From a virus (Duplodnaviria > Heunggongvirae > Uroviricota > Caudoviricetes), in the IMG/VR virus record IMGVR_UViG_2913192161_000002, positions 1 to 12,310 of that record: a stretch of 12,310 nucleotides of DNA; one strand, given 5' to 3'. The translations under genes were made by a program, and so were the position numbers. Position 1 is the first letter of the stretch; each line of letters begins with the position of its first letter. Positions 1-12,310 of the stretch are shown piece by piece. The notes beneath the pieces were generated by a model that saw only the letters and a list, made by a program, of their open reading frames with translations, made no database searches and had not been told where the DNA came from.

Positions 1-30
1 GCTTTACGCTGGGAATTTAGTGCCTGCATG
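1..30 (-). CDS. Endolysin (lambda R-like), first 10 codons only; gene runs off the window start
   Basis: Minus-strand ATG at 30-28, two nt after the holin stop, translates MQALNSQRKA, which resembles the lambda R N-terminus (..NNQRKAF..) as I recall it. Position directly downstream of the holin. Only 30 nt visible. Confidence 0.4.
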
Positions 31-32
31 AA

Positions 33-359
33 TTACTCCTTCGAGCTACCAAATTTGTTACCGATTACTCGCATTGCAGCCCCACGAATAGCATCGACAC
101 CGATCAGCCCAACGCCGCCACCAATGGCAACAGAAAGTGATTTAGGCCATCCGACATACTCAAGAGCGGATGCAAAAGTCAGCGTCAGAGCGCCACAGAG
201 TAGAATTTCGAGTGTTTTTCGCTTCCAGCCGCCACCACCGCCAAAATAGGCAATACGTAAACCAGCCATAACAATCGACATAATCACTGCGCCCAGCGGT
301 GTGTCTCCACGCCACCAGCTCTGGACCAACTCCAGCCAGGTATTTGGGTTATGAGGCAT
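33..359 (-). CDS. Holin (lambda S-like, glycine-rich transmembrane segments, charged C-terminal tail)
   Basis: 108 aa ORF with hydrophobic Gly-rich stretches (AYFGGGGGW, AIGGGVGLIGVD) and a basic C-terminus, sitting immediately upstream of the endolysin start. AGGTGAGAG ribosome-binding site before the ATG at 359. Architecture resembles lambda S. Confidence 0.8.
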   Translation of the reverse strand: MPHNPNTWLELVQSWWRGDTPLGAVIMSIVMAGLRIAYFGGGGGWKRKTLEILLCGALTLTFASALEYVGWPKSLSVAIGGGVGLIGVDAIRGAAMRVIGNKFGSSKE

Positions 360-510
360 TTGTAGTTATCTCTCACCTCGCTGATACAGCAGGTGCAAAT
401 TGAGGGAACATCATGTACCGCAAATCAGAAGCGGAAACGTCAAAGAAGCCGAGCCAATGGATAACTGCGGGATAGACCAGACTCAACGAATCCCCAGGCC
501 CAGAAACGAC

Positions 511-537
511 AAAACCCGCTCGACGGCGGGTTTAAGC
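511..537 (-). terminator. Rho-independent terminator, candidate tR' of the late leader transcript
   Basis: On the minus strand a GC-rich hairpin CCCGC(cgtcga)GCGGG is followed by TTTTGTCGTTT. It lies about 150 nt upstream of the holin start and downstream of the candidate late promoter. Confidence 0.55.
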
Positions 538-599
538 TGTGTGGCGAAGTAACCACTCTTAACACAGTAACGCAATTTTTGCGGACCGCGATAATGTTT

Positions 600-608
600 T
601 TTATACCA
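600..608 (-). promoter_or_regulatory. Candidate Q-dependent late promoter pR' (extended -10, TGgTATAAA)
   Basis: Minus strand reads TTTGGTATAAAAAAC, giving a TG-extended -10 hexamer TATAAA about 65-90 nt upstream of the terminator at 511-537. No good -35. Placement is by analogy to lambda pR'-qut-tR'. Confidence 0.3.
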
Positions 609-654
609 AAAAAAGGTATTTTATGGAAAAAAATCAAGACATAGCGAGCAAAGA

Positions 655-1524
655 GTGACTAAAACAACTTCTTTTCAGATCTTCTACGATGCAGAGGATA
701 ACGAATTAGCACAGCATAAAATTGATGCCAAAACATTAAGCATCTCCATAGGTTCGATGGCAGATTTAATATCAGCAGCTGATAAAAGACTTAATGACGG
801 CCAACAAACCGTTAAGTTAATGGTTACTAATCCAGCAGAAGCGGGATCACTCGGCGTATCCTATACCATGATGGAGCTTGTTCCTCATGCCGTCGACGTC
901 GCAAAAGTGATTGGCCTAACAGGGATAGCCGGGGCTGCTATTGGAGCTCCAGCATTATCACTAATCCGCCAACTGGGCAGCAAGAAAGTAATTTCGGTAA
1001 CAAAACGGGCAGGAACAGAAGAATCTGTTCTTGAACTTGAAGGGGAAGAAATTGTTTGCCATGACTCAGTGGCTAAGTTAGTAACAGATCCTGAAGTCCG
1101 TGATGCCCTTGTGAATGTAGTTCGTGCACCATTAGACGGCAAACAAGGTGCAGTATTTAAGGTGCTAAATGATGAAGGCGAAGAAGTCGTTCGTCTTGAA
1201 GGAAGTGAAACCGAAGAGATCAAACCGCTGCCTAGAGGTACACTACTTGAAAAAGAAGAGTCTGTAGAAGAAGTCAATGTTAGATTCGTACAGATCAACT
1301 TCGAGGGTACAAAGGGTTGGAGAATCGATTATTTAGGCGAGGAGCATGCTGTTACCTTTGAAGATCAGTTGTTTATACACCAAGTTCAAAATGGAATCAT
1401 CAGTTTTACAAAAGAAGATTTGTTTGTTGTTGAGCTAAAAACTATAAAAACTTTCACTGCGCGAAATGCCACAACCAAGTATGCTATAACCAAAGTAAAA
1501 CGAAAACGCCCTGCTGAGGCTTGA
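655..1524 (+). CDS. Hypothetical protein, 289 aa, with one glycine-zipper-like hydrophobic segment; first gene of a three-gene accessory cassette
   Basis: Long ORF opposite to the flanking phage late genes and visibly more AT-rich. Internal hydrophobic Gly-rich segment VIGLTGIAGAAIGAPALSLI, an acidic middle region and a basic C-terminal tail KVKRKRPAEA. Start is uncertain: GTG at 655 sits directly against AAAGAG, and the next in-frame ATG is at 757. No family recognised. Confidence 0.65.
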   Translation: MTKTTSFQIFYDAEDNELAQHKIDAKTLSISIGSMADLISAADKRLNDGQQTVKLMVTNPAEAGSLGVSYTMMELVPHAVDVAKVIGLTGIAGAAIGAPALSLIRQLGSKKVISVTKRAGTEESVLELEGEEIVCHDSVAKLVTDPEVRDALVNVVRAPLDGKQGAVFKVLNDEGEEVVRLEGSETEEIKPLPRGTLLEKEESVEEVNVRFVQINFEGTKGWRIDYLGEEHAVTFEDQLFIHQVQNGIISFTKEDLFVVELKTIKTFTARNATTKYAITKVKRKRPAEA

Positions 1525-1790
1525 CAAAAGTGACACTGAACATGCAGATAGCACAACTGATCTTCTGGATAGGGGTGATAATGATCATCCCTGCCTTTAG
1601 TCGTTTTTGCTATTCAGCGTCAGCCTTGCTTTGGCGTCGACTATTCCCTACAAAAGTCTTCGAATTCCGATATCACGATGAAGAATCCGGAGTGACCAAG
1701 ACGCTAGTAATAAAAGTTCCAAGTAAAAAGGGAAAAATGCTAACAACCCTCATTGAAGAGGCAATTGCGGAGAATTCAAAACGAAAATGA
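1521..1790 (+). CDS. Small membrane protein, up to 89 aa, one N-terminal transmembrane helix and a charged C-terminal tail
   Basis: ORF overlaps the upstream stop (TTGA at 1521-1524); alternative starts are GTG at 1530 and ATG at 1542. Hydrophobic segment IAQLIFWIGVIMIIPAF followed by a Lys/Glu-rich tail. Its stop overlaps the next start (ATGA at 1787-1790). Confidence 0.55.
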   Translation: MTKVTLNMQIAQLIFWIGVIMIIPAFSRFCYSASALLWRRLFPTKVFEFRYHDEESGVTKTLVIKVPSKKGKMLTTLIEEAIAENSKRK

Positions 1791-2209
1791 ATTCTCAAAC
1801 TAAAGGTCTAAGCACAGGAAAAGCTACCCTTTCAACTGGTGGTTGGGGAGCAATTCTAAGTGTTCTTGTTAGCGCGATTTTAACCGACCCTAATAGCGTG
1901 TGGCGAACTGTAGCCTACGCATTAGTACCGGGTGTTGCGGCAACTTTAACTTACGTCATGAATTGGTTTATTTCGAGGCATGGTTTCGAATCTCCAGAAG
2001 ACGCAGCCAAAAGAGCAAAATGCAAGCGTGATTTGGCTGAGATTGAGAAGCAGTTACGATCTGACCACTTAAGTCCTGAAATAAAATCAACATTGATGCA
2101 GGCTAAAGCAAGAACAATCGAAATTTTGGTATCAATCGGAAGGGAATCTATACTCGAAACATCTGCGCGTAACATTACACCATCAGAAACTGCCGATCCG
2201 CAAAGCTGA
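1787..2209 (+). CDS. Membrane protein, 140 aa, two predicted transmembrane helices and a charged helical C-terminal domain (holin-like topology)
   Basis: ATG at 1787 overlaps the preceding stop. Two hydrophobic segments (GGWGAILSVLVSAIL and VAYALVPGVAATLTYVMNWFI) followed by a Lys/Arg/Glu-rich region. No family recognised. Confidence 0.6.
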   Translation: MNSQTKGLSTGKATLSTGGWGAILSVLVSAILTDPNSVWRTVAYALVPGVAATLTYVMNWFISRHGFESPEDAAKRAKCKRDLAEIEKQLRSDHLSPEIKSTLMQAKARTIEILVSIGRESILETSARNITPSETADPQS

Positions 2210-2220
2210 GCGGCAGTTTC
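2186..2220. terminator. Perfect 10-bp inverted repeat stem-loop at the convergent junction of the cassette and Q
   Basis: GAAACTGCCG (2186-2195) and CGGCAGTTTC (2211-2220) are exact reverse complements with a 15-nt loop containing the stop of the 140 aa gene. Followed on the plus strand by TATTCT, a weak U-tract. Confidence 0.4.
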
Positions 2221-2232
2221 TATTCTGGTAGT

Positions 2233-2598
2233 CTATTGGTCCATTTCCAGACAAAGATCAAGCATTGAGAGACAGCCTTCAACAAAACCCTCAGCCATCT
2301 GTATCTCAATGCGTATTAGTTTCTCATCCTTTTTACGAGCTTTGGCGAGCTTTCTTTTAGAGATACCGTATAGGTAATGGGCAACAAGAAGCGAATGTTC
2401 GTCTGGCCTTTTTTGCTTTAGACGAGCAAGACAACCTTCAATAATTAATGCATCACTATCTGAACAAGCCTGACGTGTTTTGCTTGTATAGGGAAGAAGC
2501 CCCTTAAACCCAGCAGCTATAGGCGAATAGTCTACTCCTGAACTATCACTCGCCGCCCATGCACCCCAACGCTCAAGAATCATCTGAATATCACGCAT
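2233..2598 (-). CDS. Q: Late-gene antiterminator Q (DLP12 QuuD-like family)
   Basis: Translation MRDIQMILERWGAWAA... closely matches the N-terminus of E. coli QuuD as I recall it. Start placed at ATG 2598, preceded by GGGGAAAG; the ORF-track TTG start at 2613 adds 5 codons. Position is between rusA and the lysis genes. Confidence 0.85.
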   Translation of the reverse strand: MRDIQMILERWGAWAASDSSGVDYSPIAAGFKGLLPYTSKTRQACSDSDALIIEGCLARLKQKRPDEHSLLVAHYLYGISKRKLAKARKKDEKLIRIEIQMAEGFVEGCLSMLDLCLEMDQ

Positions 2599-2621
2599 CA
2601 ACTTTCCCCACAAAAATCAGG

Positions 2622-2720
2622 CTAGCACGCCAATTGCCAGCAAAAATCAATAAAACGATATAAGCGCAGGCGCACCCAGCGGCGGCGAAGACGTTCTGTC
2701 ATATAAGACTCAAACATCAT
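2622..2720 (-). CDS. Small ORF, 32 aa, ylcG-like
   Basis: Minus-strand ATG at 2720 overlaps the rusA stop (ATGA) and translates [23 protein letters not shown]... The Arg-rich RW.RLRLYRF core resembles what I recall of DLP12 YlcG, and it sits in the same rusA-Q slot. Below the ORF-track length cutoff. Confidence 0.4.
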
Positions 2721-3079
2721 TCATCTCCCAGTTCAGTGATGGTCAGCTCCAGCTTTCCACCCTTGGTAACGGGCATCTTCACAACGCGATAATCAACGAC
2801 CTGAGCATCATCCAGCCAGAAACCTGCTTTGGTGAGTGCGTCAAAAGCGGCCTTTTGCAGATTATCCAGGTCACGGCGACGGCGATCCGGCATGTGGCAC
2901 TCAATACGGATTTTCACTGGCATAGCCAGGCCGATATCCAGCATGGAGCCTTTGATGATTCGGGCGACGTTATCGCGGTATGCCTGCCCTTCTGCGCTGA
3001 TGTGCGTGCGCCCGCGATTATGGCGGTAGTAGCGGTTATTGCTCGGCGGCCAGGGTAGTGTGATGTAGTAAGTATTCAC
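2717..3079 (-). CDS. rusA: Holliday junction resolvase RusA
   Basis: 120 aa product [38 protein letters not shown]... is near-identical over its length to E. coli RusA from memory. GTG start overlaps the ybcO stop (GTGA). Confidence 0.95.
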
Positions 3080-3366
3080 GCCTTAATTACCCCCTCTTTC
3101 AGCCAGATAACCTGCGTTCTCGCCATACCTTCCAGCGCGCATTCTTTTGCATATCCAGCGTCAACAAAATGCGTGCGACGGTCGATCTCGTCGTGACAGG
3201 CAGAACATGCAATGGTGGCAATAAGGTCTGGCGGTTTAATACCGGTGCCGCACAATCCAGCTAGCCGGATATGTGCCAGTACAGACGTTTCAGGGTTGCC
3301 ATTACATACGCCAGGGATTCTTACCTGGCATTCCCGACCACGCGCTGCTTTTCTCAAATCAGCCAT
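3076..3366 (-). CDS. ybcO: YbcO-like DUF1364 protein (Cys-rich, putative nuclease)
   Basis: From the internal ATG at 3366 (AGGAGG ribosome-binding site upstream) the product [35 protein letters not shown]... matches DLP12 YbcO. The ORF-track start at 3405 is probably an over-extension. Confidence 0.85.
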
Positions 3367-3529
3367 GACTCCTCCTTGCTGCCAGTCGCAACCATTTTTT
3401 ATCAACCAGGCTGGCGGTATACCCGAGCAGTGTTGGTATTTCGGATGGTTTCAGCTCAGGCTTACGCTTACGACGATTTGGTACTCTGTAGATGTGTCCG
3501 TTCATGACACGAATAAGCGGTGTAGCCAT
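3359..3529 (-). CDS. ninE: NinE
   Basis: Hand translation of the minus strand gives a 56 aa [59 protein letters not shown], which matches lambda/DLP12 NinE. Its ATG overlaps the ybcN stop (TAATG) and its 3' end overlaps the ybcO start. Missing from the ORF track because of length. Confidence 0.8.
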   Translation of the reverse strand: MATPLIRVMNGHIYRVPNRRKRKPELKPSEIPTLLGYTASLVDKKWLRLAARRSHG

Positions 3530-3984
3530 TACGCCTCCTGCTTGTCGCGCAGCAGCTGGAACTCGCAGCTCTGCGGAATAGTCAGGTGGCAGCCAATATT
3601 CATCGCCCAGGCTTCAACCTTACACAGGAAGACATACATCTCTCCGGTATCAAGATCGGAGGTATGGCGTAACGACTGGATCGTAGTGATTTCGCCGGTT
3701 ACGACATCAACCAGGTCCTTGGTTTCATAACCGAGGTATGTGTGTTTGAGAGCATCTTTTACCCATGCTGCGGTAGCGAACGATTTCCCCCTGCTGATGA
3801 GGTATTCACTGATTTCGCTGTACCACATGTGGCTGAGTGCATTCTGGGAAAGACTGCGTTTCTCACGCCACGGTTTAAGCACCATGCGAAAGCATTTTCC
3901 GTCCTCCAGATAAGGCTGGATCTGCTGACCGATAGCGGTGAAGTTGCCGCGATGTAATTTGATGCCGTCTTGTGGGAGGTTCAC
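3529..3984 (-). CDS. ybcN: NinB/Orf-family protein (YbcN-like DNA base-flipping protein)
   Basis: 151 aa product [48 protein letters not shown]... is near-identical to DLP12 YbcN from memory and shares the RSLxQN core with lambda NinB. GTG start with a GGAGGT ribosome-binding site. Confidence 0.9.
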
Positions 3985-4495
3985 GCTTCACCTCCGCAGA
4001 GGTCAAACGTTGGATGCAAAAAATCGCAGGTGCATTTCTGCAACTGTGAAGGGAGAAGAGAGTTTGGATTGTGTGTGCGCATAAACGTCCCCGTTTAGCG
4101 CAGAAGTCACCGGAGGTGTTCAGGCTCCGATGACATGATTATGGCGAGTTGATTATGGAAAATCAATTGAAGATGAAATTCAACAATGCCCCATGGTGCT
4201 ATGGCGCTCAATTAATTATATAACTTCAGAGAAAACTGATAACCCATTGATGATCACATTAGCTCAGACTAAGAAGACTGACAACGGGGACGAACATGAA
4301 CAGCAACGCCTGACATAGGTAAATCTCAAAAGCGAATCATATAATCCTTACCCCATCACTCAGAGACATCGCATAATAACATTCATACCACTATATAACC
4401 TCCAAATAACAACAACAATTCATTGGTTGCATTAATATCAGCGTGTTCCGTTGTTCAGGAATAAAACTTTTTATTTAACAAACAAAGAGAGTTCA

Positions 4496-5173
4496 ATGAT
4501 GAGCAAAATTACAGGCGTGTTAGTTGATAGCCATATCTATGATATTAAAAATGATATGGAGAGTGGTTACTGTTTCCCTAACAGTTTGTTCCCAGGAGCA
4601 ACCTTCAAGATGGTCATTGATAATGACCCTATTAATAATGACAAGGTAAAATGGACCTGTAGCACTAATGCAGACAATAATGTTCTGGCGGTTAGCCAGG
4701 ATGGCACAGTAACTTTTCCGGGCGTAGATGAAAAGTGCGTTGGGAAGATTTTTGTCATTTTCGCCACTGATAAATCAACAAACAAATCTGCCGGCATCTA
4801 TGTTTTTATTGTGAAGCGTTTTTTCAAATACAGCATTGAACTTTATAACTCAGTTAAAGATATTTTACCGTGGATTGAAAACATGAACGGGAATTTTCCT
4901 GAGGCACGTGACATCTATAGTTACGATTATGATAACTATAGTGGACCGCATATTATCAATCGAGAAGTTAACGCAGGGCTTTACCAGGAATGGGGCACGT
5001 TATCTAATAGTGGATGGGACGCAAGTTGTGAGCTTGAGGGTATTTGTAGCATTTACGCTTTTGATAAAGACAATAATACTTATTATTGCCTGCGTGATTA
5101 TGGAGAAATAGAGTGTATTGATCGTTTTTGCGTCGCTCAGGCAGTTGCATCCTACGGAGAATCCATCGACTGA
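4496..5173 (+). CDS. Hypothetical cysteine-rich protein, 226 aa from ATG 4496, possible Ig-like N-terminal region; lone accessory gene
   Basis: Strongly AT-rich ORF opposite to the phage operon, flanked by about 0.5 kb and 0.28 kb of AT-rich non-coding DNA. AAAGAGAG ribosome-binding site before the tandem ATGs at 4496/4499. Eight Cys, many Asn/Asp/Tyr. The segment VKWTCSTNADNNVLAVSQDGTVTFPG resembles bacterial Ig-like (Big_2-type) strands. No clear signal peptide. Confidence 0.55.
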   Translation: MMSKITGVLVDSHIYDIKNDMESGYCFPNSLFPGATFKMVIDNDPINNDKVKWTCSTNADNNVLAVSQDGTVTFPGVDEKCVGKIFVIFATDKSTNKSAGIYVFIVKRFFKYSIELYNSVKDILPWIENMNGNFPEARDIYSYDYDNYSGPHIINREVNAGLYQEWGTLSNSGWDASCELEGICSIYAFDKDNNTYYCLRDYGEIECIDRFCVAQAVASYGESID

Positions 5174-5251
5174 TTGTGTTTTTTTCAACTATCATTTGCA
5201 TTATTACAGCGTAAAGATTCACTGAAATTATAAAATTTAACTTGCGCAAAA

Positions 5252-5281
5252 CCACCCGTTCAGCGGGTGGTTCTCATTTTT
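5252..5281. terminator. Bidirectional rho-independent terminator between the convergent 240 aa gene and the Bro-N gene
   Basis: 7-bp stem CCACCCG(ttcag)CGGGTGG followed by TTCTCATTTTT on the plus strand and by TTTTGCGC on the minus strand. Confidence 0.55.
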
Positions 5282-5452
5282 ATCCACTATGTATATGAAG
5301 CTTAAAAAAATAAACGGACTTAAGCGATCCTTTTTATATTGCTACAAACAATTAATTCTCGACACCTAATAACTAAAGCCCCGCCCCCATATACCGCCAA
5401 TACCCGTTTCATAACAAAATGCTGGTGACATTTCTCACCGGAAACTTTATTG

Positions 5453-6058
5453 CTACTGCTCAGAACGCAAATGCGGCAATACTCGGCTCCACTTATCATC
5501 CTGCCACGGCTGGAATCTTACATGTGCCGTTTCTCTGGCAAGGATTTCGCGCGCCTTATGTAGTATCTGGGGATATTCTTGCTCAATAGAAGTAAAGCGA
5601 CCGGCTTCGCGATGCTCCGCAACCTGAAGAAGTGGAGTAATATTCTGGCAGGCGGTTAACATCACATCCCCTGCTCGCCATAACCAGGCGAGTGTGCAAA
5701 GTTCGTTATCAGTGAATTGTTTTGTGATTGGGGATTGTTGAACTTCTCGATCGAGAATATCCAGAACCCAGCGGCGGAATTCTTTGGCTACAGGAGTGCG
5801 GGCGAACATAGCGATCAAATGGGCACCACGGAGGGAGAAAATGCGTATTGTTTTCTGGTAGTTCCCTGAGACACTCAAATTGAGGGTCTCAGTCATATCT
5901 GCCCTAAATTCATCGGAATTTCGATCGTAGATCTGAGTTACGGCATCAGATTTTTTATATCCGAGAGCTTGAGCAATCTCAACGGCAGTAAGCCAGATAC
6001 TGTTGTTGTGTTTAACAGGATGGAATTTTGTTTGATGAAAGACTAGTTGTGTGCTCAT
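5453..6058 (-). CDS. Bro-N/AntA-like domain protein (putative antirepressor-type regulator)
   Basis: 201 aa. The N-terminus LVFHQTKFHPVKHNNSIWLTAVEIAQALGYKKSDAVTQIYDRNSDEF fits the Bro-N/AntA pattern (F..F..V....W..A.D/EIA..LGY) from memory. The C-terminal domain is not recognised. Confidence 0.5.
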   Translation of the reverse strand: MSTQLVFHQTKFHPVKHNNSIWLTAVEIAQALGYKKSDAVTQIYDRNSDEFRADMTETLNLSVSGNYQKTIRIFSLRGAHLIAMFARTPVAKEFRRWVLDILDREVQQSPITKQFTDNELCTLAWLWRAGDVMLTACQNITPLLQVAEHREAGRFTSIEQEYPQILHKAREILARETAHVRFQPWQDDKWSRVLPHLRSEQ

Positions 6059-6211
6059 GATGATTACCTATAAATCAAGTTAACCACCACCGCTGACGCC
6101 AATCAGTTTGGTGGTGAGACATGTAGGGTTGGCGTAACCGGGGTAATCAACCGGCCCGACCGAAGTCGGCCCTACACGCCCCACCATAATTCAGATGTGC
6201 GTATGCTTACG

Positions 6212-6238
6212 ACAATAAAAAACACGCTCGCGGCGTGT
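6212..6238 (-). terminator. Rho-independent terminator downstream of ren (tR2-like position)
   Basis: On the minus strand a 6-bp stem ACACGC(cgcga)GCGTGT is followed by TTTTTTATTG, about 100 nt after the ren stop. Confidence 0.6.
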
Positions 6239-6333
6239 AGTAGTCGCGATTACCTTATCCGGGACGCCAATCCCGTGTGCCGATTTTGCGGCAACGCACA
6301 GAATATAGCGCCAGATATTAGTTATCGTCAACC

Positions 6334-6633
6334 TCACTGATTTCCTCCCCCCGCCGCATAAACAAATAAAACCCGCTTCATCGCGGCACTCTGGCGACAC
6401 TCCTTGAAAATCAGATTCGTGCTCACCTTTCCTTCCCGTTCTTCCCTGGTAGCGAACCGGTAATACACCGTTCGCCAGACCTTACCATCAATGACTAAGA
6501 TTCCTGCCCGCGCCATTTTAGCCGCAGCCTGATTTATGCTGGTTACTGTTGCGCCTGTTACCTCAGCAACGTCCTGCGCACAGAAGCTCTTATGCGTCCC
6601 CAGGTAATGAATAATTGCTTCTTTTCCCGTCAT
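6334..6633 (-). CDS. ren: Ren protein
   Basis: Product MTGKEAIIHYLGTHKSFCAQDVAEVTGATVTSINQAAAKMARAGILVIDGKVWRTVYYRFATREEREGK... matches lambda Ren from memory. Its ATG overlaps the P stop (ATGA). Confidence 0.9.
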   Translation of the reverse strand: MTGKEAIIHYLGTHKSFCAQDVAEVTGATVTSINQAAAKMARAGILVIDGKVWRTVYYRFATREEREGKVSTNLIFKECRQSAAMKRVLFVYAAGGGNQ

Positions 6634-7331
6634 ACACTGGCTCCTTTCAGTCCGAACTTAGCTTTAATTTCTGCGATCTTCGCCAGAGCCTGTGCACGAT
6701 TTAGAGGTCTACCGCCCATGACAGGAAGTTGTTTTACTGGTTCAGGTATAGCCTCACCACGGTTAATTCGCGCGGTCATACAGGCCAGTTCATCGGCAGC
6801 CTTGCGCCGTAATTCCGCATCAGTAAGCGCATTGGCCCGCATGTTCTGGTACAGGTTGGTAACCAGCCAGTAGTGCGCGTTTGATTTCCACGGATAAGAC
6901 TCTGCATCTGGATACAGGCCACGCTTCCGGCAATACTCATAAACCATATCAACCAGCTCGCTGACGTTTGGCAGCCCGGCGTTAACGGATGCTTCTTCCC
7001 GGCACCAGGCGACAAACTGCCCGGGTGATGGCAGGAATGGTCGATTCTGCCGACGGGCTACGCGCATTCCAGCGTTAACCTGTTCCATCGTGGTGATCCC
7101 ATTTTCCCGGAAAGCCAGAACCCACTGGCGGCGGATTTCGTTCAGTTCGTTCTGGTCACGGTTAGCCAGGCTCGCCGGGAAAGTTGCCAGTAACTGGCTG
7201 AACACACCATTGATAATCTGCGCTACCTGCTGTACCTGCGGCTTTTCGTCGTACTGTTCCGGCATGTTATTGGCGATCCGGCGCATCTGCTCACGGTCAA
7301 AATTAACCATCTGTGCGGCGATGTTTTTCAT
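6630..7331 (-). CDS. P: Replication protein P (DnaB helicase loader)
   Basis: 233 aa product MKNIAAQMVNFDREQMRRIANNMPEQYDEKPQVQQVAQIINGVF... is essentially lambda P from memory. Confidence 0.95.
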   Translation of the reverse strand: MKNIAAQMVNFDREQMRRIANNMPEQYDEKPQVQQVAQIINGVFSQLLATFPASLANRDQNELNEIRRQWVLAFRENGITTMEQVNAGMRVARRQNRPFLPSPGQFVAWCREEASVNAGLPNVSELVDMVYEYCRKRGLYPDAESYPWKSNAHYWLVTNLYQNMRANALTDAELRRKAADELACMTARINRGEAIPEPVKQLPVMGGRPLNRAQALAKIAEIKAKFGLKGASV

Positions 7332-8257
7332 AGCTCCACCCCGTAAATCCAGTCAGTGTTCGTCAGGTCGAGTTTTGGTTTTCCGGCTGTCACGCCAGCC
7401 TGTTGCTTGTTACGGTTGATTTCGAGTTGGGTCCACTTGTCGCGGAGTTTGGCCGGACTTAGCACGTTACCGGACCAGAAGTTGTCCTGGCATGCCCAGC
7501 GGAACAGCACGCACATGTCGCGGTGGTTACGTCCGTCACGTTCACGCATCAGGCGGATATCGTTAGCCCACCCTGCAAAATTCGGTTTTCTGGCTGATGG
7601 CGCGATGGTCTTCACCATGTCAAACATCCACTCTGCGGCGGTCAGGTCTTCTGCTGTCCCCCACTTGCTGCCGCTCTGAATCGCAGCATCCGGTTTCACC
7701 ACAGGAAGGTCGTTTTCTGGCTGGTCAGAGGATTCGCCAGAATTCTCGGACGAATAAGGTTTTATATTGTCTTTTGTTAGTTTGTCTTTTGTGTTTACCT
7801 GATTCGGGTAAACGTCTTTACCTGATTTGGGTAAACTTTTTTTACCTGATTCAGGTAAATTTACCTCTTTCAGGTAAACTTTATTTTTCTTACCTGATTC
7901 GGGTAATGTTGACCATTCACTGACCACATTATTAATGCCGGTATTCCGCCCGCTCTGAATAAAAATCCCACGCTTTACCAGAACACTTTTTGCAGCAGAA
8001 CACTTGTGCGGCAATATCCCGGTTAACTCGGAAAGTTGCTCGTTGCTCACCCAATCCATTTTTTTATTAAAGCCATATGTTTTGCGCATGACAGCCAGGA
8101 AGACCAGAAGCTGGTGCTGTGTTAATCCAGCCAGCATCACAGCTTCCAGCAACTCATTTGCAATGCGCGTATAACCATCATCGAGATCTGCCACGCGCGG
8201 CTCCTTTTGTGCCGCATCCGGCACTGGAAAATTGAATATCTCAGCAGTGTTTGCCAT
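7328..8257 (-). CDS. O: Replication initiator O (origin-binding protein)
   Basis: From the internal ATG at 8257 (GGGAGGA ribosome-binding site) the product MANTAEIFNFPVPDAAQKEPRVADLDDGYTRIANELLEA... aligns with the lambda O N-terminus (MTNTAKILNF...VADLDDGY...). The coding region contains the iteron array. The ORF-track start at 8347 adds 30 residues with no lambda counterpart. Confidence 0.9.
   Translation of the reverse strand: MANTAEIFNFPVPDAAQKEPRVADLDDGYTRIANELLEAVMLAGLTQHQLLVFLAVMRKTYGFNKKMDWVSNEQLSELTGILPHKCSAAKSVLVKRGIFIQSGRNTGINNVVSEWSTLPESGKKNKVYLKEVNLPESGKKSLPKSGKDVYPNQVNTKDKLTKDNIKPYSSENSGESSDQPENDLPVVKPDAAIQSGSKWGTAEDLTAAEWMFDMVKTIAPSARKPNFAGWANDIRLMRERDGRNHRDMCVLFRWACQDNFWSGNVLSPAKLRDKWTQLEINRNKQQAGVTAGKPKLDLTNTDWIYGVEL
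7755..7906. repeat. Replication origin: five 17-bp iterons (TTACCTGATTCGGGTAA-like) plus an adjacent AT-rich region, embedded in O
   Basis: Iterons at 7795-7811, 7818-7834, 7842-7858, 7861-7877 and 7890-7906, each an internal inverted repeat TTACC...GGTAA. AT-rich tract at about 7755-7794 lies on the side downstream of O transcription, the same layout as lambda ori. Confidence 0.85.
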
Positions 8258-8343
8258 AATTCCTCCCGCAATGAGTGTGTTACGATTTGCACCTGAAAGT
8301 CGGTTCTGTTCCCGCAGACCGACTTTCGCCATTTTTGAACCTG

Positions 8344-8889
8344 TCATATTGCCCCCAGCATGGTGGTGACCATCGCCATCAATGGACCAGCCAGATCCGG
8401 GTCCACTCGAAACATCGACACAATGCCTTCACTCATCTCCTTCAGTTTCTGGTGGCGTGGTGCGTTGAGAATGACAGCCTGTTTTGCCTCACTGAGTTCC
8501 TTTTCCATTTCAGCCAACCTAGCCATAAAGCTATCCTGCTCAACCAGGTAACCGCGATATTCCAGCGGTAGTACCGCCAGAATTGCCGGGGTCAGTTCAC
8601 GCACGTTATTTCGGTATTTTTCAGAATCGAATTTGTTATCGAGGAAGCGGAACAGCTTCTGGCGTGCACGGCTGACATCATCAGGGAAATCGATGGTGCC
8701 GCCGCCCTGCTCCCGATACTCATTCACAATGAGTGCGGCAACAACATCCTGATTATCTGCAGCCGACCAGGCGCGGACGGCATCACGGATTTTTTCGTGG
8801 CCTGGAGCTTGTTTTGTTTGAGAACGATTTATCACCGCAGTCGGGCTAAATCCGCTAGTCTGTTGGTATGTAAGTGGTTGCATAGTCAT
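8344..8889 (-). CDS. CII-like regulatory protein (YdaT-like family)
   Basis: 181 aa ORF in the cII position between cro-like and O. Motifs EYREQGGG and LTPAILAVLP resemble what I recall of Rac YdaT-type CII-like proteins. AAGG ribosome-binding site before the ATG at 8889. Confidence 0.5.
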   Translation of the reverse strand: MTMQPLTYQQTSGFSPTAVINRSQTKQAPGHEKIRDAVRAWSAADNQDVVAALIVNEYREQGGGTIDFPDDVSRARQKLFRFLDNKFDSEKYRNNVRELTPAILAVLPLEYRGYLVEQDSFMARLAEMEKELSEAKQAVILNAPRHQKLKEMSEGIVSMFRVDPDLAGPLMAMVTTMLGAI

Positions 8890-8913
8890 TGCCTTATCAG
8901 TTAACGCCGCAGT

Positions 8914-9141
8914 TTAGGCGGCAGAATTACTCGCGTTAAACAATGGTGCGAGGTCGGGACGAATATCTGCTGGTTTAATCTTTCCACCAGTGGCTGAGAC
9001 AATTTTCATTACATAGCGGGCATCAATTCCGCCACCGTGTAGCCAACGCCAAACAGTGGGTTGGGCTACACCGCATAGATCTGCCAGTCGTTTTTGACTA
9101 CCTGTAATACTGATTGCGAGTTGAATGGTTTGATTTGTCAT
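8914..9141 (-). CDS. cro: Cro-like HTH repressor (YdaS-like family)
   Basis: 75 aa from ATG 9141 (AGGA ribosome-binding site). HTH segment LADLCGVAQPTVWRWLHGG. First gene transcribed divergently from cI, downstream of the predicted PR. Confidence 0.7.
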   Translation of the reverse strand: MTNQTIQLAISITGSQKRLADLCGVAQPTVWRWLHGGGIDARYVMKIVSATGGKIKPADIRPDLAPLFNASNSAA

Positions 9142-9172
9142 TATCAATTCCTATTGGTATTGCAATGAATAA

Positions 9173-9242
9173 ATAATAGCAATGCGTATTAATCATAACA
9201 ATAGCAAAACGTGTTTTGACCATCAATACGCAAGCGTATAAA
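9173..9242. promoter_or_regulatory. OR region: three 16-bp operators (6-4-6 inverted repeats, arms AATAGC/AATACG) overlapping divergent PR and PRM candidates
   Basis: Operators read directly: 9175-9190 AATAGC-AATG-CGTATT, 9200-9215 AATAGC-AAAA-CGTGTT, 9225-9240 AATACG-CAAG-CGTATA, centres 25 bp apart. PR on the minus strand: -35 TTGTTA (9196-9201), 17-bp spacer, -10 TATTAT (9173-9178). PRM candidate on the plus strand: -35 TTGACC (9216-9221), -10 TATAAA (9237-9242), implying a near-leaderless cI mRNA. Confidence 0.6.
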
Positions 9243-9251
9243 TTAAAACTT

Positions 9252-9944
9252 ATGAAAAAAGAAACTCTTGCTGATCGCTTAAACCTAGCGATGGAACAAT
9301 CTGGAATGTCTCAAGGCGCTCTTGCAAAGGCGTCTGGCGTAGCTCAACCCACAATCTGGAGACTGACAAGCGGCAACGCGCGCGGCTCAACAAAAATTGT
9401 TGAAATAGCTAATGCATTGGGTGTTCGAACAGAGTGGCTCTCATCAGGCATAGGCCCGATGAGAAATGACGGTCAACAATTAGGGAAGCCTACTGCCAAC
9501 CATCCCAAATACTTCAAGATTGACGTTCTTGATATAGAAGTGAGTGCCGGGCCGGGAGTCATCAACCGTGAGTTTGTAGAAGTTCTACGCTCGGTTGAGT
9601 ACTCGTTTGACGATGCTCGTCACATGTTCGATGGCAGGAAGGCAGAAAATATCCGCATCATTAACGTACGCGGTGACAGCATGTCAGGAACGATCGAACC
9701 AGGTGATCTTCTGTTCGTTGATATCACTGTTAAATCTTTCGACGGTGATGGTATCTATGCGTTTCTGTATGACGACACCGCCCATGTAAAGCGCCTGCAA
9801 ATGATGAAGGATAAGCTGCTGGTTATCTCTGATAACAAGAGCTACTCACCGTGGGACCCGATCGAGAAAGACGAGATGAACCGCGTGTTCATCTTCGGGA
9901 AAGTCATCGGGAGCATGCCGCAGACATATAGAAAGCATGGGTAG
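9252..9944 (+). CDS. cI: CI-like prophage repressor (N-terminal HTH, C-terminal LexA-like S24 autopeptidase domain)
   Basis: From ATG 9252: HTH segment LAKASGVAQPTIWRLTSGN, an Ala-Gly cleavage-site candidate (SAGPG), and a C-terminal GDSM serine motif with VKRL lysine, as in LexA and lambda cI. The ORF-track TTG start at 9216 is rejected because it lies inside the operators. Confidence 0.9.
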   Translation: MKKETLADRLNLAMEQSGMSQGALAKASGVAQPTIWRLTSGNARGSTKIVEIANALGVRTEWLSSGIGPMRNDGQQLGKPTANHPKYFKIDVLDIEVSAGPGVINREFVEVLRSVEYSFDDARHMFDGRKAENIRIINVRGDSMSGTIEPGDLLFVDITVKSFDGDGIYAFLYDDTAHVKRLQMMKDKLLVISDNKSYSPWDPIEKDEMNRVFIFGKVIGSMPQTYRKHG

Positions 9945-10028
9945 AAATCAGAACAAAATTATGCACTTCGCTTTTCAGCTTACTGTAGTAAGGCAATAAA
10001 TTAGGCTTGACGTTAGCTATCAGGTGCA

Positions 10029-10043
10029 CAACAATAATTGTTG
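10029..10043. promoter_or_regulatory. Palindrome CAACAAT-A-ATTGTTG upstream of the metallopeptidase gene (candidate regulator-binding site)
   Basis: Perfect 7-bp inverted arms around one central base, about 30 nt upstream of the ATG at 10074. A TTGACG -35-like hexamer lies at 10007-10012. No clear -10 assigned. Confidence 0.3.
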
Positions 10044-10073
10044 AATAATAGGTTTTTTTAACTAGGTGATAAC

Positions 10074-11213
10074 ATGGCAGCGGTTGAATTTCAATTGTCT
10101 AGGAAGATGATTGATTGGATAGCAAATTCTCAAGGAGTTTCTATCGAAACTCTTGCTGACCAAGTCATGCCCAAAAAGATTAATAAATTTCTTAACGGAG
10201 TGGTAAGTAAATCCGCAGCAGAAAAACTGGCAAAAATTGGAGGAATCCCTTTCGGTTTTTTATTTCTTGAAACGCCACCAACTCCAGCCAAACCCAAGAT
10301 CCCTGACTTAAGGCAAGCTATAAATAGCCGTGAGTTAGGAAAAGATTTTTTTGATGTTTACTATGATATAGAATATAAACTTGAGTGGTACAAAGACTAT
10401 TTAAGAGAAAATGGTAATGATGATCCACTCGATTTTATTGGTAAATTTAAATTTAATAGAAAATTAAATTATAAGGTTGTTGCTACAGACATAGCAAACA
10501 CAATACATTTTGATATACAAAAAGAGATAAAAAATGTCACTTTTGAGAGCTATTTTTCTAAAGTGGCAAAACTAATAGAAGACACTGGCGTATTAGTTTT
10601 CAAGAATGGTGTTGTGGGTAATAATAATAAAAGAAAACTTGACACGCGAGAGTTTCGTGGTTTCTGTATATCTGATAGCGTTGCTCCGATCATTTTTGTA
10701 AATAGCTCGGACGCGTTATCTGCGCAGGTATTTACATTATTTCATGAGGTGGCTCATCTTTGGCTTGGAGTCGATGGAGTCTCTGGGTGGGACACAGAAA
10801 AAAACATAGAATCTTTTTGTAATAAAGTTGCTGCTGAAATCTTAATGCCTGATAATCTCTTCAAATCTTTCTGGCTTAATGCATCCAGCGATAATAATTA
10901 TTATCGAGTAAAAGAGGTTTCTAAGTTATTTAAGGTTAGTGATTTCGCTTGTGCAATCAAAGCGTTACAATTAGATTTGATAGAAAGAAACACTTTGGAG
11001 ATAATTAAAGATCAAGCTTACAATAAGCCCAAAAAAGAATCTAATGGTGGTTCTTTCTTTAACACATTACCTGTTCGTAACAGTCCAAAACTTACGAATA
11101 TAATAATTTCCAAAGCAATGTCTCAACAATTACCATTAAGGGAAGCAGGCGTACTGCTAAATGTAAAAGCAGATACAGTTGTTGAATTTTATAAAAAACG
11201 AGAATCTCTATGA
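10074..11213 (+). CDS. HTH-domain plus ImmA/IrrE-family zinc metallopeptidase (HEXXH)
   Basis: 379 aa. N-terminal region has an XRE-like HTH pattern (SIETLADQV...KKINKFLNG). Central HEVAH motif in the context FTLFHEVAHLWLG is typical of ImmA/IrrE (Peptidase M78) proteins. AGGTGA ribosome-binding site. Very AT-rich compared with cI. The stop overlaps the next start (ATGA). Confidence 0.75.
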   Translation: MAAVEFQLSRKMIDWIANSQGVSIETLADQVMPKKINKFLNGVVSKSAAEKLAKIGGIPFGFLFLETPPTPAKPKIPDLRQAINSRELGKDFFDVYYDIEYKLEWYKDYLRENGNDDPLDFIGKFKFNRKLNYKVVATDIANTIHFDIQKEIKNVTFESYFSKVAKLIEDTGVLVFKNGVVGNNNKRKLDTREFRGFCISDSVAPIIFVNSSDALSAQVFTLFHEVAHLWLGVDGVSGWDTEKNIESFCNKVAAEILMPDNLFKSFWLNASSDNNYYRVKEVSKLFKVSDFACAIKALQLDLIERNTLEIIKDQAYNKPKKESNGGSFFNTLPVRNSPKLTNIIISKAMSQQLPLREAGVLLNVKADTVVEFYKKRESL

Positions 11214-11722
11214 TTCATAATGGAAAATTCTTAATTGATAGTAATGTCTTCATAGAGGCAAAAAACTTTGCATATAACTTCAATTATTGCAAAATATTTT
11301 GGGATTTTCTTCTCGCTTTACACATGAATGGTCTGATTTATAGCATTAATGCTGTAAAAAAAGAACTATGTGCAAAAGATGATCCATTGTGTAAATGGAT
11401 TAAAGAAGAGTTACCATCATCATTCTTCGAAGATGAGCATAGTTCAATAGAAAATTATGCAAAGTTAATAAATTGGTCAACTAAATTAGATGTTACCGAA
11501 AAGGCAAAGTTTGATTTTGCAAGCCATGAAAAAGCAGATGCTTTTTTAATAGCCCATGCGATGACACATGGATATACTATTATTACCCATGAGAAACCAT
11601 CCGGTGGCAAACCTAAAAAAAGAATAATGATCCCGGATGCTGCTGCTTCTCACGGCGTTAAGACATTAACACTATATGAATTTCTTCCAAGATACGCTAG
11701 TCATAATTTTTCTTTGAAATAA
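11210..11722 (+). CDS. PIN-like nuclease-fold protein (DUF4411-like)
   Basis: 170 aa, translationally coupled to the upstream metallopeptidase gene. The N-terminal FLIDSNVFIEA matches the first PIN beta-strand with its conserved Asp, and further acidic residues follow. From memory, DUF4411 proteins typically pair with HTH/ImmA-type partners. Confidence 0.6.
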   Translation: MIHNGKFLIDSNVFIEAKNFAYNFNYCKIFWDFLLALHMNGLIYSINAVKKELCAKDDPLCKWIKEELPSSFFEDEHSSIENYAKLINWSTKLDVTEKAKFDFASHEKADAFLIAHAMTHGYTIITHEKPSGGKPKKRIMIPDAAASHGVKTLTLYEFLPRYASHNFSLK

Positions 11723-11727
11723 AACGT

Positions 11728-11755
11728 CCCGGCCACCGTGCCGGGTTTTCTTTTG
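11728..11755 (+). terminator. Rho-independent terminator after the metallopeptidase/PIN pair
   Basis: CCCGGC(caccgt)GCCGGG hairpin followed by TTTTCTTTTG, 6 nt after the stop at 11722. Confidence 0.7.
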
Positions 11756-11883
11756 TCCCCTCCCCTCATCACACAAACCGTTCGAAAAACCACCACAACC
11801 TCCCTTCAGTTATCGCTATGCGATGCAAGTCACAAAATTAATTCTTTTTGCTATCAAACAGTTAATATCAAAACACATCAATC

Positions 11884-11926
11884 AATAGCAATAAGTATTG
11901 ATACCACCAATAGCAATAGCTATTAT
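11884..11926 (+). promoter_or_regulatory. PL/OL-like early promoter with two operators of the same 6-4-6 type as OR
   Basis: -35 TTGATA (11898-11903), 17-bp spacer, -10 TATTAT (11921-11926). Operators AATAGC-AATA-GCTATT (11909-11924) and AATAGC-AATA-AGTATT (11884-11899), centres 25 bp apart. The operator/-10 overlap mirrors PR. Confidence 0.55.
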
Positions 11927-12119
11927 TACCATGTCGCAACAACACAACGATACGGCAACCACCTGATTCACCGTTGCGATGACCGCTTAGATCCGCAGCT
12001 TGAATTTCGGCAGGCTCCGGGGAGTGCGAGGGGTGAAACGGACGCGTGAACGTCGGTGTGACCAGCTGAAATCAACTCAACACCTCATACCTCAGTCGCT
12101 TCAACGAGGCGGCTTAGTT

Positions 12120-12310
12120 ATGACAACCGGCGGCCATCCACCGCCTGAATACGCGCAGAAGTCTCTATATGTTCAGCAGCCCAGCTTACGGGCAGGAGTT
12201 TTTATGGTTCATCAACATTACGGAACGCAGACCGTTAATCGCGGCGCGGTCATGCCAGGAATGCTGGTCAAACACAAAGATGGTACCTGTGTAAATAGAC
12301 CCGTTTTAGT
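12120..12310 (+). CDS. Hypothetical protein, 5' partial (first 63 codons); first ORF downstream of PL, in the N position but not N-like
   Basis: ATG at 12120 directly follows an in-frame TAG, with GAGG about 11 nt upstream. The frame stays open to the window end (MTTGGHPPPEYAQKSLYVQQPSLRAG...). Codon usage looks enterobacterial. No arginine-rich motif. Not in the ORF track because no stop is reached. Confidence 0.3.
   Translation, partial: MTTGGHPPPEYAQKSLYVQQPSLRAGVFMVHQHYGTQTVNRGAVMPGMLVKHKDGTCVNRPVL

Follow-up and report, generated by a model that had tools for sequence, protein, structure and literature searches.

The stretch of viral DNA studied here (12,310 nucleotides, positions 1 to 12,310 of IMG/VR virus record IMGVR_UViG_2913192161_000002, Caudoviricetes; called the window below) comes from a lambdoid Escherichia coli prophage, of which it is the early and immunity region, and between its cI repressor gene and the terminator that precedes the OL repeats it carries a two-gene unit which, by synteny, occupies the position of lambda rexA-rexB. 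We propose that this pair is probably a type II toxin-antitoxin cassette of the VapBC52/RosmerTA kind, expressed in the lysogen as lambdoid cargo and most likely used for anti-phage defence by abortive infection. The two genes are coupled, the HEXXH...E site of the first protein and the acidic site of the second are intact and invariant, the two genes are strictly linked, and the unit behaves as a cassette. A toxin-antitoxin or defence module had already been suggested in an initial annotation made from the DNA letters alone, and the suggestion is supported here by the domain matches, the invariant catalytic sites, the VapC fold of the second protein and the position of the slot. The features of the cassette and its immediate border are the following.

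9945-11726, + strand: swappable cargo cassette (promoter region and two genes), from comparison with phage D2; 33.4% GC
10007-10035, + strand: sigma-70-like promoter, TTGACG, 17 nt, AACAAT, from a consensus scan (9/12 matches); presumed functional
10029-10043, no strand: perfect 7+1+7 palindrome CAACAATAATTGTTG, which overlaps the -10-like hexamer and may be an operator
10074-11213, + strand: gene 1, antitoxin gene, 379 aa (Pfam Peptidase_M78, PHROG, PADLOC, AlphaFold2 (AF2)/Foldseek)
11210-11213, + strand: stop and start codons overlapping as ATGA (translational coupling), as seen in the sequence itself
11210-11722, + strand: gene 2, toxin gene, DUF4411 PIN-like nuclease, 170 aa (Pfam, PHROG, AF2/Foldseek)
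11728-11745, + strand: intrinsic terminator, 6 G-C pairs and a T-run; backbone element equivalent to lambda t-imm

Two proteins homologous to VapB52 and VapC52

Hidden Markov model (HMM) searches for the M78 and DUF4411 domains matched both proteins far beyond chance. Gene 1 matched Peptidase_M78 of Pfam over residues 169-291 (E=1.2e-13), with HEVAH at residues 224-228, and phrog_2439 of PHROG (3e-76); its best PADLOC match was capP (1e-14), and 13 RmrA models of PADLOC also matched it at E values from 6e-8 to 8e-4, some of them along the greater part of the protein (PDLC03947, for example, spanned residues 20-314). H224, E225, H228, E246, C249, D78 and R80 were invariant among 46 antitoxin-type relatives, and because the residues of the zinc site do not vary, the peptidase site is under selection and is not a relic. 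In the AF2 model (predicted local distance difference test, pLDDT, 88.4) the protein is laid out as a five-helix N-terminal domain, a linker of low confidence, an M78 and helical mid-domain, and a four-helix C-terminal domain (328-378), and the best Foldseek matches for the mid-domain were CapP (7t5t) and IrrE (3dti). Thus the ImmA/IrrE-type HEXXH core that the initial annotation had read from HEVAH is confirmed by the Pfam match, the motif and the invariant site. The XRE-like helix-turn-helix (HTH) assigned to the same protein stands by predicted fold and homology, whereas the Pfam HTH models are silent on gene 1; the five-helix prediction, a weak Foldseek match of the N-terminal domain to the XRE-type controller protein C.BclI, and homology to the N-terminal domain of VapB52 suggest that such a domain is present.

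Gene 2 matched DUF4411 of Pfam (E=1.1e-37) and phrog_11126 of PHROG (2e-67), and has FLIDSNVFIEA at residues 7-17. D10, E52, D110 and E128, the acidic tetrad of PIN domains, were invariant in 42 toxin relatives. The first Foldseek matches of its AF2 model (pLDDT 87.6) were all VapC structures (3h87, 6a7v, 9h6a and 3zvk, probability 1.00), so that the earlier description of gene 2 as PIN-like and DUF4411-like agrees with profile, motif and fold alike.

A disrupted copy of this gene was seen in one viral contig (L026, IMG/VR UViG_2908572912_000001), which matches window positions 8964-12289 at 98.6% identity. Its toxin gene (4001-4513) has a TAA nonsense codon exactly at the catalytic Glu52 and is a natural toxin knock-out, which fits a gene that can be costly or harmful.

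Both families are represented by one solved complex. In a profile search of the PDB, the antitoxin profile matched 9vzy_A, titled 'HTH cro/C1-type domain-containing protein', with E=6e-23 over residues 10-335, in an HMM alignment that leaves the C-terminal domain uncovered, and the toxin profile matched 9vzy_D ('DUF4411 family protein', E=1.2e-13). Judged by these profiles, the window proteins are homologues of Mycobacterium tuberculosis VapB52/VapC52 (Rv2515c/Rv2514c), whose structures are PDB 9VZY and 9VZZ (Singh et al., NAR, June 2026; PMC13273310). In the VapBC52 complex antitoxin and toxin are present at a ratio of 1:2, the N-terminal domain of VapB52 is required for binding, and its C-terminal domain occludes the PIN active site (PMC13273310). 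The M78 domain of VapB52 is rendered active by single-stranded DNA (ssDNA) and then cuts off the protein's own N-terminal domain; a conserved 'FR' motif was proposed as the site, and self-cleavage was lost in H216A/H220A (HEXXH to AEXXA) (PMC13273310). The same work described a 'cysteine switch', C229, which completes the coordination of zinc in the inactive state and keeps the zinc site of VapB52 closed, and showed that VapC52 cleaves mycobacterial tRNAs and the tRNAs of phage D29 (PMC13273310). Hence the statement in the initial annotation that this pairing is not functionally characterised no longer holds, since a system of the same two-protein architecture, homologous to both proteins, was solved and tested in 2026.

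By homology with VapBC52, one antitoxin of the window type would bind a toxin dimer, with the HTH-fold domain at its N-terminus anchoring the complex and the helical domain at its C-terminus plugging the PIN active site. ssDNA that arises from phage replication or DNA damage would activate the M78 domain, and the activated peptidase would cut its own linker at L79-R80 (F-R in relatives) and so release the N-terminal anchor. The freed PIN nuclease may then cleave tRNAs or other RNA, and growth would stop before the cycle of the invader is completed. The linker of gene 1 contains P77-D78-L79-R80 (pLDDT 66-70 in the AF2 model), which the HMM alignment puts on D-F-R of VapB52, and at position 79, 29 of the 46 antitoxin relatives have L, 16 have F and one has M. 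Because this conserved [L/F]R motif lies in the protein's own linker, it points to self-cleavage rather than to cleavage of a repressor.

The control of the peptidase may be of another type than in VapB52. S237 of gene 1 falls at the position of the cysteine switch (C229), where 44 of the 46 aligned relatives have Ser and the other 2 have Thr, and the invariant C249 aligns with C248 of VapB52, which is not the described switch residue. With Ser at the VapB52/CapP cysteine-switch position, the peptidase may be controlled as in IrrE, without the switch, and the replacement offers a naturally occurring variant on which to study how M78 peptidases stay inactive.

A swappable cassette downstream of cI

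Comparison with phage D2 (OM475427) delimits the cassette, because the identity of D2 to the window is 98% as far as the end of cI (stop codon, 9944) and 97% once more from 11727 onwards, and its slot in between (L009, 2081-3497) holds the PADLOC candidate PDC-M11 A/B (a hypothetical protein and an ASCH protein) instead of the pair. The GC content is 33.4% in the cassette and 46.8% across the remaining window, and with the overlap at 11210-11213 this bears out the AT-rich two-gene unit with an ATGA overlap that had been noticed before. A query of the backbone from cI to OL was matched in 2225 of 5426 complete E. coli genomes, and the pair was carried by only 33, in copies whose identity to the window cassette is 99.7% or more. 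Among further E. coli loci (L019-L023), those that have the cro of the window and a cI almost identical to its own carry alternative cargo in the slot: a hypothetical protein with a Ser/Thr kinase (Stk-like), a hypothetical protein with an MqsA-like antitoxin and SecB, a HipA-family kinase with DUF3037, or DUF6932 with a hypothetical protein. In a prophage of the O157:H7 strain 493/89 that has a related S24 repressor, the slot is empty. The HipA-kinase and DUF3037 combination is the validated defence system DS-6/HipAD, the MqsA-type antitoxin with SecB has the layout of a toxin-antitoxin-chaperone system, of which one with a SecB-like chaperone has been validated as the defence system CmdTAC (Vassallo), and the cI-N region as a whole is a recognised mosaic and defence hotspot that is home to RexAB and BstA. 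The company of these cargos, validated defences among them, would lend the pair a defence role by position.

Transcription of the pair would start at the conserved promoter of the cassette itself. TTGACG-N16-CAACAAT is kept upstream of homologous pairs in Klebsiella (L002), Enterobacter (L014) and a locus whose antitoxin cluster is named for Trabulsiella (L010), and thus the -35 hexamer, the spacing and CAACAAT of this promoter-like sequence are retained in other Enterobacteriaceae although the antitoxins share only 53-78% identity. No terminator-like site was found between cI and gene 1, so read-through from PRM is plausible and is probably an additional source of transcription. Transcripts of the cassette would end at the terminator at 11728-11745. 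A strong terminator and an upstream palindrome had been attributed to the unit. The terminator is present at those positions, but it is not the cassette's own, as it is common to the backbone of phage D2 at 97% identity though D2 carries different cargo; we therefore rejected it as a part of the cassette and regard it as phage backbone that is also found with other cargos. The palindrome also exists (10029-10043), but shuffling the intergenic region gave arms of at least 7 in 7.4% of cases, and thus it is not significant alone. In homologous loci its left half, which is the -10-like hexamer, is conserved and its right arm only partly so. An operator function, which has neither statistical support nor full conservation, was accordingly left as a possibility. 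Rfam detected no RNA element within or adjoining the cassette.

These signals bear on another account of gene 1, in which it is mainly a transcription switch, like a fused CapH and CapP, whose HTH represses the promoter and whose self-cleavage de-represses the toxin gene, with no direct neutralisation of the toxin. The best PADLOC match (capP), the XRE-like fold of the N-terminal domain and the overlap of the palindrome with the -10-like hexamer are what such a switch would lead one to expect. However, the homologous VapB52 binds its toxin directly and occludes it (PMC13273310), the ATGA-coupled toxin is made whenever the antitoxin is made, and the palindrome is neither significant nor conserved. 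Moreover, one protein could both repress and bind, as classical type II antitoxins do, and we consider a switch without neutralisation quite unlikely.

To see how strictly the two genes are linked, we used 74 IMG/VR loci that encode a DUF4411 relative with 99-30% toxin identity, 72 of which have upstream DNA. In 72/72 of the latter, a gene of the A2 family (antitoxin) ends at the toxin start on the same strand, and the arrangement was also kept in every genome context inspected. The surroundings vary. The pair follows an HTH-only Rac-type repressor in Klebsiella, a 143-aa protein without Pfam match at the same position beside a cro-like gene in Enterobacter, and three different S24 repressors in prophages of Morganellaceae, where an N-peptide gene comes after the pair in 3 of the 4 loci shown. 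It lies beside DinI, invertase and tail-fibre genes in a myovirus-like prophage, in a Delftia prophage its neighbours are structural genes for capsid and adaptor, and in Actinobacillus equuli it lies between housekeeping genes; these three loci (L008, L007 and L010) have no repressor nearby. In total the pair was found behind at least 5 unrelated repressors, some of them without an S24 domain. These varied contexts argue against a specific partnership with the cI of the window, and the pair is an autonomous, self-contained cassette. On viral contigs the nearest large upstream open reading frame (ORF) was an S24 repressor in 28 of 54 distinct cases, and hence the slot transcribed in lysogeny is the favourite home of the pair; this preference is shared with unrelated cargos, and a special link to cI is not needed to explain it. 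In INPHARED, a megablast search with the cassette matched only the 34-bp terminator, and a tblastn search with the toxin gave one 27%-identical metagenomic phage, so that the pair is absent from the isolated phages of that collection.

A separate arrangement was seen on two viral contigs (L096/L097, 2553-3998), in which a longer A2-family protein of about 481 aa is followed by no more of the toxin than a short stretch that matches its residues 7-45; the pair may here be degenerate or rearranged.

The initial annotation had also considered that the peptidase might feed into the immunity switch, as an ImmA-like anti-repressor that cleaves cI, Cro or another XRE repressor and thereby acts on the choice between lysis and lysogeny. 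Gene 1 does adjoin cI, about half of the distinct viral contexts are directly downstream of an S24 repressor, and ImmA, IrrE and CapP do cleave XRE-type repressors. Yet this cI has an S24 autocleavage domain of its own and is also found with other cargos or none, while the pair occurs with unrelated repressors, with HTH-only repressors or with no repressor, and its peptidase is always tied to the PIN gene. Moreover, the conserved [L/F]R site lies in the linker of the peptidase itself, and by eye cI is without a P-D-[LF]-R motif. The pair being self-contained and repressor-independent, with the motif in its own linker, we disfavour an anti-repressor and consider it very unlikely. A related idea is that the peptidase-antitoxin is wired into the biology of its prophage, either through a self-immunity device (compare aba of BstA) that silences it during the prophage's own SOS induction, or through ssDNA-activated cleavage in trans of XRE repressors (cI, Cro or those of incoming phages). 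We entertain such wiring, which we rate as very unlikely, because the family is without the cysteine switch and about half of its viral contexts are behind a RecA-dependent S24 repressor; if true, it would couple the sensing of superinfection to the lysis-lysogeny decision.

Several observations weigh against a VapBC52-like defence cassette and have to be set beside the evidence for it. M. smegmatis was protected from D29 by the toxin over-expressed alone and not by the complete VapBC52 pair (PMC13273310), and for an intact system of exactly this type defence is so far a prediction. The identity between VapBC52 and the window pair is low and detectable at the profile level only, and Cys229 is replaced by Ser or Thr in all 46 aligned members of the window family, whose regulation may differ. 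Gene 2 had no match at E<=0.1 in any PADLOC family, RmrT models included. Toxicity, neutralisation, trigger and target are all inferred in the case of the E. coli pair. Finally, an ssDNA trigger is expected to fire also during SOS induction of the host prophage, which raises the question of how an ssDNA-triggered suicide module avoids sabotaging its own ssDNA/RecA*-induced prophage.

The D29 result with the complete pair would suit a pure addiction module, which stabilises the prophage or its immunity region by post-segregational killing and excludes no other phages. The type II toxin-antitoxin architecture is as expected for such a module, and an isolated pair is found between housekeeping genes as well. 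However, a strictly conserved and apparently signal-sensing peptidase site goes beyond what such a module requires, and the recurrent placement in the lysogeny-expressed cI-N slot, where S24 repressors make up 28/54 of the distinct upstream neighbours on viral contigs, also speaks against it. The slot is shared with validated defence cargos, and RosmerTA systems do protect against phages. Addiction alone is thus in our judgement unlikely, and anti-phage defence by a toxin-antitoxin cassette is the reading that we retain.

Immunity region and other loci of the window

The window is oriented opposite to the lambda map, and the features around the cassette are the following.

2233-2613, - strand: Q
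6630-7331, - strand: P
7328-8347, - strand: O
minus strand, together with Q, P and O: rusA, nin genes and a YdaT-like gene
8914-9147, - strand: Cro/YdaS-like gene
9174-9222, between the cro-like gene and cI: OR operator-like repeats (repeat family D1)
9252-9944, + strand: LexA-like cI repressor (Pfam HTH_3 and Peptidase_S24; start from RefSeq)
11883-11931: OL operator-like repeats, same repeat family as OR
11898-11926: PL-like promoter TTGATA, 17 nt, TATTAT, within the OL repeats, directed at kil/gam/bet/exo

The start of cI was taken from RefSeq (9252) and replaces a TTG at 9216. Because the two-gene unit lies between cI and the terminator/OL, with operator repeats of one family on both sides, its placement in the rexAB slot is as the initial annotation had it. 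In E. coli IAI1, window positions 6344-12289 are matched at 97% identity in a prophage adjoining ybhC, and kil, gam, bet and exo come after the matched region. An N-like gene is not apparent in window positions 11950-12310, between OL/PL and a kil homologue that starts near 12201; the left operon of the window seems to open directly with kil, and the Morganellaceae relatives have their N-peptide gene after the pair.

Three further loci of the window may be of interest in their own right. In the nin region, Rfam identified a C4 antisense RNA (74 bits) and isrK (61 bits) on the - strand (6107-6293), directly upstream of an antirepressor-like gene (Bro-N and P22_AR_C; 5453-6058, - strand), and this C4/isrK locus looks like a secondary immunity module of the P1/P7-type C4/Ant, or IsrK-like, kind. 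Opposite to Q, three tightly packed ORFs of 289, 89 and 140 aa (655-2209, + strand) may form a second cargo or defence operon; none is above a Pfam curated cut-off, and PDC-S42, a candidate defence family of PADLOC, is matched by the first (E=9e-33). A second AT-rich island (4200-5400, GC 0.36-0.39) contains an orphan ORF of 240 aa (4451-5173, + strand) without Pfam or PADLOC match, which is probably another moron.

Comparison with known systems

The closest system is VapBC52, which shares gene order and both protein families with the window pair. In both, the antitoxin is large: its N-terminal domain is XRE-like and is followed by a linker with an [F/L]R motif, by an M78 domain that has the HEXXH...E site and a helical subdomain, and by a C-terminal domain that is again helical. 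The toxin of both is a DUF4411 PIN protein with conserved acidic residues. They differ in the linker motif (F-R in VapB52, L-R in the window protein) and in their setting, which is an actinobacterial chromosomal locus for VapBC52 and gamma-proteobacterial prophage cargo in the window. If the mechanism proposed above holds, the pair would be a VapBC52-type system that is encoded by a prophage of E. coli and amenable to genetics; a mechanism described for a chromosomal locus of a mycobacterium would then extend to lambdoid prophages, and the cI-N defence hotspot would gain one further cargo type. For annotation, loci with this gene pair can now be read as toxin-antitoxin pairs. Canonical VapBC systems share the PIN fold and the acidic tetrad, and the best Foldseek matches of gene 2 were to the VapC3, VapC11 and VapC2 complexes, whereas the window antitoxin is a 379-aa protein that contains an enzyme and is not a small VapB of the AbrB, ribbon-helix-helix (RHH) or Phd type.

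Among separate peptidase-repressor systems, CapP/CapH and IrrE/DdrO, whose M78 peptidases are activated by ssDNA or damage, provide the closest solved folds for the mid-domain of gene 1 and have the HEXXH...E zinc site in common with it. IrrE cleaves DdrO at an L-R bond. CapP cuts CapH at F82-R83, and the cysteine switch is absent from IrrE and from some CapP homologues (2026 CapP preprint), so that IrrE is like the window family in this respect. However, peptidase and substrate are separate proteins in these systems and the output is transcription of other genes, whereas the presumed substrate of the window peptidase is the same polypeptide and the output would be release of a bound toxin; moreover, a GAF domain is not evident in gene 1. 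ImmR/ImmA of ICEBs1 and of Gram-positive phages resembles the window in that an M78 peptidase is encoded beside the repressor of the element. Nevertheless ImmA, a small protease that stands alone, inactivates the repressor next to it, whereas the window peptidase carries HTH and C-terminal domains of its own, always occurs together with a PIN toxin, and does not depend on which repressor is nearby or on there being one.

Lambda RexAB and BTP1 BstA occupy the same position, downstream of cI and before the terminator and OL/PL, and are lysogen-expressed exclusion functions. Stk of 933W is likewise a lysogen-expressed exclusion cargo of the cI-N slot. None of the three has a sequence or mechanistic relation to the window pair, and the analogy is positional only; when RexA/RexB homology was considered, Pfam gave only Peptidase_M78 and DUF4411 for the two proteins. 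We also set aside three groups of candidates. The prophage toxin-antitoxin of the Rousset 2020 CRISPR interference (CRISPRi) preprint has a toxin without domains and depends on ClpP, and is a different system; the PIN systems DS-3 and DS-5 of DefensePredictor have no M78 partner; and PD-Lambda-2 has a HigB-like partner and gives only a weak match to gene 1. Searches by accession for the E. coli proteins (WP_000581650 and WP_000741702) gave no literature match.

The combination of these domains has been noted before. Toxin-antitoxin systems composed of DUF4411 and HTH-DUF955 fusions were a prediction of Matelska et al. (2017), the class that pairs a Zn-peptidase antitoxin with a variable toxin was validated by Millman et al. 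(2022) as the defence system RosmerTA, and PIN-like partners were noted for an ImmA-type antitoxin hub by Ernits et al. (2023; NetFlax). RosmerTA resembles the window pair in its HTH and ImmA/IrrE peptidase antitoxin, in its two-gene operon with a toxin and in its frequent location in prophages; it is a class with validated anti-phage activity, whose RmrA models match gene 1 (best E=6e-8). The toxin of the window is a PIN nuclease, whereas the characterised RmrT toxins are of other kinds, for example that of phage Kita, which depolarises the membrane. PADLOC (PADLOC-DB v2) would accordingly not call the locus RosmerTA, since it finds RmrA there and no RmrT. Thus the class to which the window pair belongs overlaps with RosmerTA, the kind is known from VapBC52 and RosmerTA, and the window pair is an added, putative member of it in a known hotspot of prophage cargo.

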